A stretch of 64,000 nt of DNA from Mycobacterium sp. GTDB taxonomy: Bacteria > Actinomycetota > Actinomycetes > Mycobacteriales > Mycobacteriaceae. The position numbers and the translations under genes were made by a program. Where the stretch lies: positions 847 through 64,846 of the forward strand of contig CAXNJA010000003.1 of the NCBI GenBank assembly GCA_964202555.1, read 5' to 3'. Below, piece by piece: positions 40,687-45,375 of this stretch. Positions within the stretch are counted from its first letter, which is position 1. Every line of letters begins with the position of its first letter. Under the pieces are notes generated by a model. That model did not search any database, was not told the DNA's origin, and saw nothing but the letters and a program-made list of their open reading frames with translations.

Positions 40687-43600
40687 ATGTACATCCGCGA
40701 CGCGCGCCGAAACGCTGCCAGGGCAAACGCCGATATCGCTGAGAAGCGGCGATGCCCGTCGGCGAAGGTTTACCCCTTACTGGCCACCGGCATGTTCGCG
40801 GCTGTGGTCGGGATGAGCGTCGCGACAACCCCGACGGCGCATGCGGATTCCTCGGACCGCGGTTCGCACTCGGGACGCGACAGCGCAACCTCCACGAACT
40901 CCCGCTCTTCCGATTCGGGGTCTAACAAGCGCGCTGCGGCGGCGTCCGGGTCCGTCGGCGAGGATGAGCCCGCCGGATCGGTACAGACCGGTGTTTCAAC
41001 GCGTAGCGTCGACATTTCGGAAGCGGCCACATCGGCTCCCGTGGCGACAGGCCCGCAGGAGCCGGGCACCCCGGCGAACCCATGGTCGATCACCACCGGC
41101 GCCACGAACGCGACGGTGGCAACACCGACTCCCAAGGCCGATACCGCACCGACTTTGAATCTCGGTATCGGCAATGTCGGCAGCTTGAACGTCGGCTCCG
41201 GTAACCAGGGCGACTGGAACCTCGGCAACGGAAACCTCGGCTCGGGCAACATCGGGTCGGGCAATCTGGGTGGCAAAAACATCGGTATCGGGAACAACGG
41301 CAGCGGCAACTTCGGCGGCGGCAATACCGGCACGGGCAACATCGGCTTCGGCAACACTGGCACCGGCAACATCGGGATCGGCCTGACCGGCGACAACCAG
41401 TTCGGAATCGGGGGCTTGAACTCCGGAACCGGGAACATGGGCTTGTTCAACTCAGGCACCGGAAACGTCGGCATTTTCAACTCGGGCACCGGCAACTGGG
41501 GCTTCGGCAACTCCGGGATGCGCAACACCGGAAGCTTCAACTCCGGCGATACCAACACCGGCAACGCCAACGTCGGCAACCTCAACACCGGTTCGTTCAA
41601 CGTGGGTAGTTCAAACAGTGGCAGCTTCAATACCGGAAGCACCAACTCCGGTGACTTCAACAGCGGCGACCTCAACACCGGCTGGTTCAACGCCGGTGAC
41701 GCCAACACCGGCCTGTTCAACTCCGGCTACCTCAACACCGGAATCTTCAACTCCGGCAACGCCAGTAACGGCTTCTTCGAGACCGAGGACAACCAGAACT
41801 GGTTCCCGGGCATTCAGGTCGCCTACACGATCCCGGGATTCACGATCGACCGGATGCTGCCGATCGACATCGGTACGCAGATTCCGGTCGGACCGCTGAC
41901 GGTGACAATCGGACCCACTACGACCGACGTCCACGTCTACGGCAGCACCGGTCCGATCGAGCTCACCGTCCTGGACATCGCCGCCGGCCCCGGCTTCTTC
42001 AACACCGGCACGATCGCCTCGTCCGGCTTCTTCAACACCGGCGCCGGTGGCGGCTCCGGCCTGCTGAACACGGGAGCGGGCCTGGTGTCCGGCTTCTTCA
42101 ACCTGGCGTTCCTGGCCGGCGCCGCCATGTCGGGCTACTCGAATTCCGGTTCGGGGTCCGGTTTCTCCAACCTCGGCTCGGCGGTATCGGGGTGGCGGAA
42201 CACGAGTTCGCTCTCGCTGTCGGACCCGGCCTACCTCTCCGGTATCGAGAACTTCGGCGCGCTGTTGTCCGGTTACTACATCAACGGTGTGACCGGCGGC
42301 TCGACGTTCAACCTGGGTGCGGGCAATGTGGGTTCGCTGAACTTCGGTGACGGCAACGTCGGGGACAACAACCTCGGTGCGGGCAACGACGGTAACGGCA
42401 ACTGGGGCTTCGGCAATGCCGGCAACGCGAACCTGGGTTCGGGCAACGCCGGGGACAAGAACCTCGGCGGCGGCAACATTGGGTCGGGCAACTTGGGTTC
42501 GGGCAACCTGGGCAGCAACAACTGGGGCTGGGGCAATAACGGCGGCAGCAACTTCGGCGCCGGGAACACCGGTAACGGCAATATCGGGCTCGGCAACACC
42601 GGCAACAACAACATCGGTATCGGTCTGACCGGTGACAACCAGTTCGGCATCGGCGGGTTGAACTCCGGTAGCGGGAACAAGGGCCTGTTCAACTCCGGCA
42701 CCGGCAATACCGGAATCTTCAACTCCGGCAACAACAACTGGGGCTTCGGCAATGCCGGCAACCTCAACACCGGGCTCTTCAACACCGGTTCCACGAGCAC
42801 CGGACTGGGCAACTCCGGGAATCTCAACACCGGCTCGCACAACGCGGGTCAGTCCAACACCGGAAACGCCAACGCCGGTATCCTCAACACCGGTGTGGCC
42901 AACATCGGCGATGGCAACACCGGGTGGTCGAACACCGGTGACGGCAATACCGGCTGGGTCAACACCGGCAACATCAACACCGGCGCCTACAACACCGCCA
43001 CCGGCAGCAATGGGCTGTTCTGGCGTCGCGACGACGGCGGCCAGTTCAACATCGACCTCGGCGCGGACCTCTCCCAGATCCCGATCACGCTCAACGCCGA
43101 CATCCCGGTCAACATCCCGATCACCGCAGAGCTGACTAACCCGATCGCGATCCCGAGCATCGACCTGCCGGTCAGTCCGATCGACACCAGCATTTCCACC
43201 CAGTTCGAACTCGCGCCGGGCATCAACGCCGACGTGGTGATCAACGCGGTCGGATCGCTGGGGCCGATCACGTTCCCGGGCACGAATGTCACTGTGCCGC
43301 AGTTGGTCGGAACTCTGGGCGGGCCGGGCACCTCGATCCCGATCGTGGTCAACGGCACACTCGGGCCCGGCCGGATCTCGCTGTTCCGCCTGGGCGGGCC
43401 CGGGTTGTTCAACTCCTCCGATCTGCCCTCCTCGGGGCTGTTCAACTACGGCGGCGGTGCGCAGTCGGGATTCTTCAATTCCGGTTTCGGAGCCACCTCC
43501 GGGTGGATGAACGAGGCGTTGCAGGCGGGTCTGTCCGGCGCGAACAACACCGGTTCGGGGTCGGGCTTTGACAATCTGGGCGGGGATATCTCGGGGTATG

Positions 43601-45375
43601 GCAACACCAGCACCCTGGACCCGGCGCTGTCGGCGTTCGTCTCGGGGCTGCTCAACCTCGGCACGAACCTGTCGGGTCTGTTCGTCAACGTCGGGTCCGG
43701 ATCAGCAAGAAGCGGATCGGGGTCTCCCAAAGCCCAGGGCGGCTGGTCGCTGGGGATCGATACCAACGTCGACATCTCCGAGATCCCGATCAACATCACC
43801 GGCGACATCGGCCTCAACGTCCCCCTCAGCGCCAGCCTCACCGGACCCATCACCATCGACGGATTCACCATCCCGACCATCCCGGCCCAACTGACTAGCC
43901 CCGGCAGCACCCTGAGCCTCACCGTCCCGAACCTGCTCGGGCCGGCCGTCATCCCGATCTCCACGGACATCGGAATCGGGCCGATCACGGTGCCCGACAT
44001 CAACATCACCTCCGCCGATCCGCTGTTGTCCGGCTTGATCGGCGGCCCGGGCGTGTCGATCCCGATCAACATCAGCGGGGCCATCGGCCCGAACTACGGT
44101 CCCGGCGGCGGCGGCAACGCGAAGTTCAGCCTCACCCGCACCGACACACCCGGACTCGGGGCGAACATCCACGCCAACGTCGCCCAAACCCCGATCAAAC
44201 TCAACGCCGATGTCCCGGTCGACATCCCGTTCGTCGCCGACTTCGCCGACCTCACCCTGCAGGGCTTCACAATCCCCGGCTTCAACATCACCACCTCCAA
44301 CTGGCAGACGGTGCGCAACCAGACGACGTCAGCACCGCTGGGCAATGTGTTCCTCGACTTCAACGTGCCCGGAACGGTGTTGCCGGTCGGCGACATCACG
44401 CTTGATCCGATCACGATCGGACTGCCGACCTTGTCCGGCAATATCGGCGGACCGGGTGCCGGGTTCGGGCTCAACCTCGACGCCGGACTCGGGCCGTTCA
44501 CTATCGACGTCCCGATCGGCCTGACCACCGATCCCCTCGGCATCAACGTCGACCAGGTCCTGGTCAGCCAGATCCCGATCTTCGCGAACGTGGCCGTCCC
44601 GGTCGATCTTCCGGTCAGCCTCAGCGCCACTCCGCTCACCATCTCCCCGATCACCATTCCCCAGGTCACCATCGGCACCCCGCCCAGCGGCAACACCCTC
44701 GCTGGCCTGGTGTTCCAGGGAGCGATCAAGGGCAACACAACGCCGCCGCAAGCCAGCCTCCTGCGGCCCATGTGCGCTCAGGTCTGCGTCGCGCTGCAGC
44801 TGTCGCCGGTCATCAACCTCGGACCGATCACGACCGGCCCCATCGAACTCGGCTTCCCGGCCGATCAGGTGTTGTCGCTGAACATCGGGGGCCCCGGCAA
44901 GGGTGCCATCGTCGATGTCAACGCTCTGCTGGGTCCGATCGTCGCGTCGCTGGCCACCGGCACCATCCAGGAGTTCCCCTACTCCTATGTCGTCAACGCC
45001 GGCGTCGACGTGCCGATCGACGGAAGCACGGGCTCACTCGATCTGCAGCAGACCGATCTGTCGATCCCCTTGCAGGCTCTGCTCTACCAGCGGGTGGGCT
45101 ACTGTGCCGCCTTGGGCGTCACCTGCTCTGGGGGCTTGACCGTCGGCACTTTCAACACGTACGTCAACGGTGGCAGCCCGGCCGGCTCCGCACCGGGGCC
45201 GTTCCCGTCGAACATCACTGTCGCGACTTCCACCCTGGCCGACTCGAACCTGGGCGGGCCCATCGGTCCGTTGACTCTGATCGCGAGCATGACGATCAGC
45301 CAGGGCATCACCAGCAGCACCACGAACAGCGGCAGCGGAACACTCGGTCCGTTCAACCTCGGCGGCGCAGCTTAA
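40687..45375 (+). CDS. Giant (1562 aa) exported repeat protein with PPE-MPTR-type NxGxGNxG pentapeptide tracts but no PE/PPE domain
   Basis: The ORF is closed upstream of 40687. The N-terminus is a Sec-type signal ([30 protein letters not shown]). The pentapeptide tracts cover aa 157-364 and 541-777. GFFN/GLFN Gly-Ser modules and repeated IPI/GGPG modules fill the remainder. Confidence 0.85.
41155..41778 (+). repeat. Pentapeptide (GNxGx) tract 1 of the giant protein
   Basis: aa 157-364: [34 protein letters not shown]...[11 protein letters not shown], with strict 5-residue periodicity. Confidence 0.9.
42307..43017 (+). repeat. Pentapeptide (GNxGx) tract 2 of the giant protein (ancient duplicate of tract 1)
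   Basis: aa 541-777: [37 protein letters not shown]...[10 protein letters not shown]. It is collinear with tract 1, including the shared block [19 protein letters not shown]. Confidence 0.9.

Follow-up and report, generated by a model that had tools for sequence, protein, structure and literature searches.

A 64,000-nucleotide stretch of Mycobacterium sp. DNA (GenBank assembly GCA_964202555.1, contig CAXNJA010000003.1; the whole stretch is hereafter called the window) contains a gene whose product carries the repeats of PPE-MPTR proteins and, in place of their PPE domain, a conserved N-terminal signal of the type used by the general secretory (Sec) pathway. We refer to this gene, at positions 40687-45375 of the plus strand, as the MPTR-repeat gene and to its 1562-residue product as the window protein. 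On the basis of our results, we consider it likely that the window protein is a β-solenoid protein of the envelope or surface that is exported through Sec and cleaved by signal peptidase I; our confidence is lower for its function. An earlier reading of the same DNA from its letters (the original prediction) had proposed an MPTR passenger on the general secretory pathway, and its interpretation is supported as far as computation allows.

MPTR cassettes on a protein without a PPE domain

The open reading frame (ORF) starts with ATG. As the original prediction had stated, the frame is closed just upstream, by an in-frame TGA at 40672-74, and the preceding gene is of the NicO/nicT transporter type. 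The GC content at third codon positions (GC3) is 0.86, as in the neighboring housekeeping genes, and by GC3 and codon usage the gene looks like native coding sequence. The sole Pfam family in the ORF is PF01469 (Pentapeptide_2, the MPTR repeat; E 6.5e-64, 11 stretches). Classical PF00805 A(D/N)LXX repeats were not found by the Pfam scan, the NCBIfam scan gave no match, and an exact look-up of the protein returned no record.

Strict register, defined as N-x-G units spaced exactly 5 residues, is kept in four chains (residues 158-232, 245-359, 542-646, and 659-768). They add up to 405 residues, so that the proposed strict register was borne out with a total slightly below the estimate of about 445. 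The GFFN/GLFN modules and I/P-rich segments that had been noticed behind the repeats are present after each block, the I/P-rich module coming first. A repeat block and the non-pentapeptide spacer that follows it form a cassette, of which the window protein has two. The cassettes are 48% identical at the amino acid level (over 445 aa) and 76% identical at the nucleotide level (over 605 nt). Collapse of the repeats during assembly, raised earlier as a concern, is unlikely given this divergence, and also because independent assemblies yield orthologs of 1555-1590 aa.

Could a PPE domain be hidden in or near the gene? Pfam detected neither PF00823 (PPE) nor PF00934 (PE) in the ORF, as had been expected, and no WxG element was found in it. 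We then built a PPE hidden Markov model (HMM) from the N termini of 20 PPE-MPTR proteins and ran it against all reading frames of the window and 13 related loci. The model was strongly positive in four control loci of cultured species (M. gordonae, M. asiaticum, M. ostraviense, and Mycobacterium sp. TY814; E 1e-67 to 1e-75). It gave no match in any of the six frames of the 64-kb window, nor in the nine related loci L001-L009. With strong controls and a blank in the window and these nine loci, a hidden PPE domain, or one cut off upstream by a frameshift as the original prediction had considered, is ruled out. Moreover, the intergenic region between the nicT/NicO gene and the ORF measures 138 nt, too little to encode a PPE domain.

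In a survey by Warholm and Light (2016), a PPE domain was present in 125 of 141 Pentapeptide_2 proteins, and the PPE-MPTR proteins were described as having spacers between repeat blocks that are duplicated as cassettes (PMC4858275). BLASTP of the window protein against a PPE54-like protein gave an alignment of 504 aa (47% identical) that runs from one spacer through a repeat block and into another spacer. Because the alignment spans the spacers as well, it reflects true homology of the cassettes and not shared composition alone, and the predicted likeness to the C termini of PPE-MPTR proteins is thereby upheld. The window protein is not a PPE-MPTR protein: the defining PPE domain is absent, while the passenger region is still homologous to that of PPE-MPTR proteins.

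Signal peptide, promoter, and probable export route

The N-terminal signal was assessed by rules and by comparison (charge, Kyte-Doolittle hydrophobicity, cleavage motif, and N termini of orthologs). The n-region, residues 1-27, holds 8 basic and 3 acidic residues for a net charge of +5, and the h-region, residues 28-46, is more hydrophobic (Kyte-Doolittle 1.74) than any other 19-residue segment of the protein. In the c-region, P49 at position -5 is followed by A51-H52-A53, with D54 after the cleavage site. By these rules the sequence has the tripartite pattern of Sec/signal peptidase I substrates (basic n-region, h-region, small residues at -3 and -1), in agreement with the classical signal and AHA|D site proposed originally. 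All orthologs with a complete 5′ end show the same pattern despite diverged sequences: the n-region is net positive and 24-37 residues long, the h-region spans 20-29 residues, and AxA|D falls at residues 51-60. The tripartite signal is thus kept in the window, six orthologous loci from metagenome-assembled genomes (MAGs), the paralog L009, and many database proteins. Where a database entry is shorter, its start codon was miscalled; in L002, for example, the open frame runs upstream through a complete signal. A lipobox of the form L-[AS]-[GA]-C was not found, with no Cys near the c-region and the only N-terminal Cys (C23) inside the n-region.

Conservation extends to the promoter. When the 60 nt 5′ of the ATG were aligned for the window, eight orthologous loci, and one paralog (10 loci), TGnTAnnnT was the sole conserved element; it ends 6-7 nt before an invariant ATG, and the remaining upstream sequence has diverged. 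In the promoter architecture of mycobacteria, an extended -10 box at such a distance from the start codon indicates a leaderless mRNA. The mRNA of the MPTR-repeat gene would thus be leaderless, with the ATG at 40687 as its first codon. This conserved leaderless-type promoter fixes the start codon at that ATG, which agrees with peptide conservation from residue 1. A scan for E. coli-type sigma-70 promoters found no promoter, and the -10 box emerged from the ortholog alignment instead. At the 3′ end, the gap between the MPTR-repeat gene and a convergent fur-family gene is 13 nt, and the GC-rich hairpin placed there may serve as a bidirectional terminator. The convergent fur gene and the hairpin in the gap suggest that the MPTR-repeat gene is probably monocistronic.

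Taken together, these data suggest the following model. The gene would give rise, from a monocistronic and probably leaderless mRNA, to a precursor of about 160 kDa; the classical N-terminal signal peptide would target this precursor to the Sec pathway, and signal peptidase I would cut it after A53. The mature product is predicted to be an extracytoplasmic, largely β-solenoid or all-β protein of the envelope or surface. It would consist, in order, of a flexible linker rich in Ser, Thr, Ala, and Pro, the two MPTR cassettes, and a family-specific I/P-rich β domain at the C terminus. The linker may be a disordered spacer, possibly O-glycosylated. The C-terminal domain is probably stabilized by two short-range disulfides and would end in the GSGTLGPF tail. 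The protein's most likely role, argued by analogy with PPE10 and that protein's part in capsule integrity (PMC4900558), is a structural or adhesive one, exerted at the surface of the cell or in its capsule.

Structure prediction with AlphaFold2 is consistent with this architecture. In a model of residues 300-700, the part of MPTR block 2 covered (residues 541-700) forms a solenoid with five-residue periodicity, with mean confidence per 10-residue block mostly at 82-96 and lower at both ends of the stretch; the spacer scores below 50. The C-terminal 520 residues were modeled as all-β with long hairpins (mean predicted local distance difference test score, 68). In Foldseek comparisons against PDB, the non-significant top matches of the first model were parallel β-helices and QnrB1, and those of the C-terminal model were β-barrels or pore-formers. 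A phmmer search of PDB sequences gave no match.

Several points weigh against this model or parts of it. Both AlphaFold2 models are only moderately confident outside the solenoid, and neither has a significant Foldseek match in PDB. AlphaFold2 is known to over-predict solenoids for repeat sequences (bioRxiv 10.1101/2024.10.30.621056), so that the models are consistent with a β-solenoid and do not prove it. The signal is unusually long, at 53 aa with a 27-residue n-region, and in 9 of 14 ortholog N termini RR or RRR stands shortly before the h-region, a weak resemblance to the motif of the twin-arginine translocation (Tat) pathway. Finally, the proposed function is argued from analogy only.

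One potential alternative is that the protein leaves through Tat instead of Sec and crosses the membrane folded. The arginine pairs or triplets precede the h-region by 5-10 residues (as in QQRRRLLQF and EERRRLVHL), and the length of the signal peptides (about 53 aa) and the moderate hydrophobicity of their h-regions would suit this route. However, the twin arginine is not conserved, as 5 of the 14 orthologs have RHR, WR, or GR, and the window's own RRCPSAK is non-canonical, without hydrophobic residues at positions +2 and +3. Pfam and NCBIfam scans of the window protein gave no Tat-signal family; the TAT_signal models PF10518 and TIGR01409 presumably belong to the libraries scanned. A solenoid of about 1500 residues with putative disulfides would also be an atypical Tat cargo. 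Because the RR motif is not conserved among orthologs, we favor Sec and signal peptidase I and regard Tat as an unlikely, minor rival. Slightly less probable than Tat export, in our view, is an uncleaved signal-anchor that would keep the protein attached to the plasma membrane while the linker and solenoids extend across the wall. An h-region of 19-25 residues is sufficient to span the membrane, and the long low-complexity linker resembles a wall-spanning stalk. Yet every ortholog retains A-x-A and then D, together with P or G near positions -5/-6, as expected from selection for cleavage by signal peptidase I, and Kyte-Doolittle values of 1.3-2.1 fall in the range of signal peptides.

Two further explanations would bring the protein back to the PPE-MPTR system. 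Secretion could still depend on type VII secretion (ESX-5/PPE38), for instance for crossing the mycomembrane or through a partner in trans. All PPE-MPTR proteins detected in M. tuberculosis and M. marinum require ESX-5 and PPE38, and whether PPE38 acts on the MPTR/PGRS domains themselves is an open question (PMC7028111). Since the protein has no PPE, WxG, or PE element and no PPE gene lies within the 64-kb window, we consider this very unlikely. Alternatively, the gene could be a decayed or truncated PPE-MPTR gene, a non-functional remnant or assembly artefact whose "signal" is fortuitous. Many PF01469-only database entries are indeed fragments of PPE-MPTR genes, listed as "partial." This reading is hardly credible here and is effectively refuted: more than 20 independent assemblies contain a full-length ortholog of comparable size, N terminus and promoter are conserved, codon usage is native, and no PPE remnant was detected in any frame by the PPE HMM. 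In addition, the C-terminal domain and tail are family specific and absent from PPE proteins, and the MPTR cassettes of the family form a clan of their own with a bootstrap of 90/100. Sec export followed by signal peptidase I cleavage remains the reading that we prefer.

Table 1. Sequence features of the MPTR-repeat gene and its flanks (positions in the window)
Feature	Position	Strand	Remarks
nicT/NicO transporter gene, upstream neighbor	39484..40548	+	PF03824, E 3.7e-87; bounds the intergenic region
Extended -10 promoter element TGATATTTT (TGnTAnnnT)	40672..40680	+	ends 6 nt before ATG; invariant TG, TA, TT in 10 loci
Signal peptide, residues 1-53	40687..40845	+	n-region net +5, h-region, P at -5, AHA then D; same pattern in complete orthologs
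Low-complexity linker rich in S/T/A/P/G, residues 54-155	40846..41151	+	sequence differs among orthologs
MPTR/Pentapeptide_2 block 1, residues 156-366	41152..41784	+	PF01469; register chains 158-232, 245-359
Spacer 1, residues 367-540: I/P-rich module, then GFFN/GxSG module	41785..42306	+	homologous to PPE54-type spacers; AlphaFold2 confidence low
MPTR/Pentapeptide_2 block 2, residues 541-775	42307..43011	+	PF01469; register chains; AlphaFold2 solenoid over residues 541-700
Spacer 2, residues 776-1013: LFWRRD motif, I/P-rich module, GLFN module	43012..43725	+	with block 2 forms cassette 2, duplicate of cassette 1
C-terminal I/P-rich all-β region, residues 1014-1562	43726..45372	+	four conserved Cys, tail GSGTLGPF; AlphaFold2 model
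GC-rich hairpin GGGGGC-CGGGTA-GCCCCC	45384..45401		between convergent MPTR-repeat and fur genes; scored on minus strand

Relatives, evolution, and genomic position

Searching with the full-length protein brought up about 26 clusters of nearly full length, at 62-94% identity except for two that are weaker or partial; all contain PF01469 only, without PF00823. Nearly all come from metagenomes or MAGs and are labeled "PPE-repeat protein," "hypothetical," or "beta strand repeat-containing protein," and labels of the first kind are misleading for these Sec-signal genes. The next tier of matches consisted of PPE-MPTR proteins of the PPE54/PPE34 type. When one genome per species was scanned, orthologs were found only in MAGs of uncultured Mycobacterium or Mycolicibacterium and in none of the cultured species. 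By record and isolate names, these MAGs appear to come from lakes or freshwater and from wastewater.

The C-terminal domain sets the family apart. A profile of the last 520 residues, searched exhaustively with HMMER against 1.84 billion representative proteins, gave only 28 matches, and the Cys-bearing C-terminal part is, on this evidence from sequence profiles, restricted to this small Sec-signal family. Four Cys are conserved in it (C1363, C1367, C1473, and C1480), three of them invariant and the fourth present in at least 90% of alignment rows; their conservation fits an oxidizing, extracytoplasmic location. The tail motif GSGTLGPF occupies residues 1549-1556 (nt 45331-45354). In the form GSGT[L/I]GP[F/I] it was found inside the C-terminal 25 residues of 57 sequences, every one of which came from the family's search matches, and of none of 61 proteins that start with PPE; 2-6 residues follow it before the C-terminal end. 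The tail could be a sorting or anchoring signal, or merely a terminal β-strand.

The repeats themselves seem to be exchangeable. In P0084-86, annotated "pentapeptide repeat-containing protein [Mycobacterium sp.]," the I/P-rich scaffold and C-terminal domain are kept and PF00805 repeats replace MPTR; P0086 has a similar signal, and the tail is partly present. A YVTN β-propeller is inserted in P0033 and P0080, which likewise keep the scaffold and the four-Cys C-terminal domain, with the tail seen in P0033. These arrangements make the family look like a Sec-type scaffold in which various repeat modules can be placed.

Other PF01469-type proteins turned up beside the family. P0154, P0160, and P0166 have a basic or hydrophobic N terminus and PF01469 without PPE, and P0182, P0209, and P0235 are short proteins (288-364 aa) with PF24703 and Pentapeptide_2-like NSGxx repeats. 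The literature may underestimate how widespread PF01469-type repeats are in metagenomes beyond the PPE context. Large proteins of 1080 and 1454 aa are also encoded beside the orthologs in L014 and L015 (L014:14765-18007, minus strand; L015:15161-19525, plus strand), and a further case was seen at L018:2982-4223 (minus strand). The L014 and L015 neighbors combine PGRS-like Gly-rich repeats (GNGGSGFNGGNGG...) with a large C-terminal globular domain, and the one in L014 also has a signal-like N terminus. In proteins of this type Pfam found no PE domain, and the PGRS matches were weak (E 0.002-0.006) and below the family cut-off. If real, they would place PGRS-type repeats likewise on non-PE, Sec-type proteins in this clade of uncultured Mycobacterium.

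In which direction did the repeats move between secretion routes? We built an unrooted neighbor-joining tree of 135-residue cassette cores from the Sec-type family, including paralogs, and from sampled PPE-MPTR proteins. All cassettes of the Sec-type family, those of the paralogs included, fell into one clan (90/100), and within the family cassette 1 and cassette 2 each formed a clade (99/100 and 100/100). Accordingly, the internal duplication is older than the ortholog radiation, and one event separates the Sec-type family from the sampled PPE-MPTR proteins. As the split is unrooted, the direction, Sec to PPE or PPE to Sec, cannot be read from it, and the wording "rerouted" in the original prediction implies an evolutionary direction beyond what the tree resolves. 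We tentatively put forward a broader scenario, which we think is rather doubtful. In the clade of uncultured environmental Mycobacterium, the hallmark repeats of PE/PPE proteins (MPTR here, perhaps also the PGRS-like Gly-rich repeats of the neighboring signal-peptide proteins) would be Sec-exported surface modules independent of type VII secretion. The Sec-type state would be ancestral or parallel, with PPE-MPTR proteins (and PE_PGRS) arising by fusion to PE/PPE targeting domains. The four-Cys domain and GSGTLGPF tail would then be an unrecognized envelope-anchoring or sorting device.

The gene occupies two chromosomal positions and has therefore moved at least once. By Pfam, the gene order in the window is tsf ... 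dxr-rip ... PBP ... glnA4-aldC-SDR-nicT-[MPTR-repeat gene]-fur-nicO-RPE65-hydrolase-mqo-Mg chelatase-cobB-cysG-MFS-proS. We take this order to match Rv2889c-Rv2845c of H37Rv, with mtr, Rv2854, and PE_PGRS48 between nicT and mqo, which makes it reasonable to place a PE_PGRS gene of M. tuberculosis at roughly this position, as the original prediction did. The arrangement SDR-NicO-[gene]-Fur-NicO-RPE65 of the window recurs only in L019, the closest relative (93% identical). The other orthologs compared (L014-L018) lie between hsaB (hsaACDB) and aspB/fadE33-31/fadD3, in the cholesterol-catabolism cluster, and tblastn of the window's neighbor genes against L001-L013 found nothing syntenic. The proposed hot spot for surface-repeat genes is plausible insofar as the window follows the M. 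tuberculosis order from tsf to nicT and from mqo to proS, but the majority of orthologs are found elsewhere, between hsaB and aspB.

Some neighboring genes deserve mention. A second NicO-family transporter (45813-47036, plus strand) is divergent from the Fur-family regulator (45389-46102, minus strand; the real Fur start is probably later), so that two nickel/cobalt-type transporters, nicT and this NicO, flank the repeat gene. Farther away, an 839-aa ORF at 10689-13208 (minus strand) combines AMP-binding, PP-binding (carrier), and Acyl_transf_3 domains in an unusual fusion and is adjoined by ABC-transporter genes at 13201-16894 (minus strand). In a 425-aa ORF at 2092-3369 (plus strand), the EF-Ts match begins only at residue 217, and the ORF start is probably too far upstream.

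Comparison with known systems

PPE-MPTR proteins (PPE54, PPE34, and PPE10; PF00823 plus PF01469) are the closest known system. They have been described as the PPE subgroup that evolved most recently and are secreted by ESX-5 in a PPE38-dependent manner (PMC7028111), and they are viewed as an invention that slow-growing mycobacteria made recently and that is tied to that route. The window protein shares with them the NxGxGNxG Pentapeptide_2 repeats, the cassette of repeat block, FWRxD/I/P-rich spacer, and GFFN module, and probably a surface or envelope destination. It differs in lacking the PPE domain, and hence the EspG5/ESX-5 targeting module, and in having a cleavable-type signal peptide and a Ser/Thr-rich linker. 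The four-Cys C-terminal domain and GSGTLGPF tail do not occur in PPE proteins, and the cassettes fall in a separate clan.

The arrangement had been called uncommon. It does characterize a small conserved family with a signal in place of PPE, yet it is not unprecedented. In one sentence, Ates et al. (2016) mention MYCSM_05776 of Mycobacterium sp. JS623, a pentapeptide protein with a signal sequence, and liken it to LipY (PMC4900558); we found no further mention of it in the literature searched. By the published description, it resembles the window protein in its classical signal sequence and PPE10-like pentapeptide-2 repeats without PPE. Unlike the Sec-signal family, seen only in uncultured MAGs, it comes from a cultured fast grower. 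MYCSM_05776 was not among the matches to the C-terminal domain profile and therefore probably belongs to a different family. The matches in a search for cassette-only homologs were mostly short PPE-MPTR entries, with no protein of JS623 among them.

LipY offers a parallel at the level of the export route, since one passenger is found with type VII or classical signals: PE-LipY in M. tuberculosis, PPE-LipY in M. marinum, and signal-sequence LipY in fast growers (PMC4900558, PMC7028111). Its passenger, however, is an enzyme and not a repeat solenoid, and LipY has no sequence relationship to the window protein. Classical pentapeptide-repeat proteins (PF00805; MfpA/Qnr type) are likewise solenoids with a five-residue period; QnrB1 was among the non-significant Foldseek matches, and the P0084-86 scaffold carries PF00805 in place of MPTR. 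In contrast to the window protein, which has an export signal and no PF00805 match, these proteins are cytoplasmic DNA mimics.

A conserved family that combines complete MPTR cassettes, the C-terminal domain and tail, modular relatives, and a leaderless promoter and that is restricted to uncultured environmental mycobacteria appears not to have been described before. Whether MPTR/PGRS domains themselves impose dependence on ESX-5/PPE38 has been posed as an open question (PMC7028111). The conserved and apparently functional Sec-signal family suggests, with one brief published precedent, that MPTR repeats have no inherent need for type VII secretion, and it provides a natural test of whether an MPTR solenoid can be exported and displayed without that system. 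It also adds one observation bearing on how these repeats arose through shuffling of domains between secretion routes, and it offers a tractable MPTR construct that could be produced via Sec in M. smegmatis, for studying the structure and function of a domain that has so far been hard to investigate.

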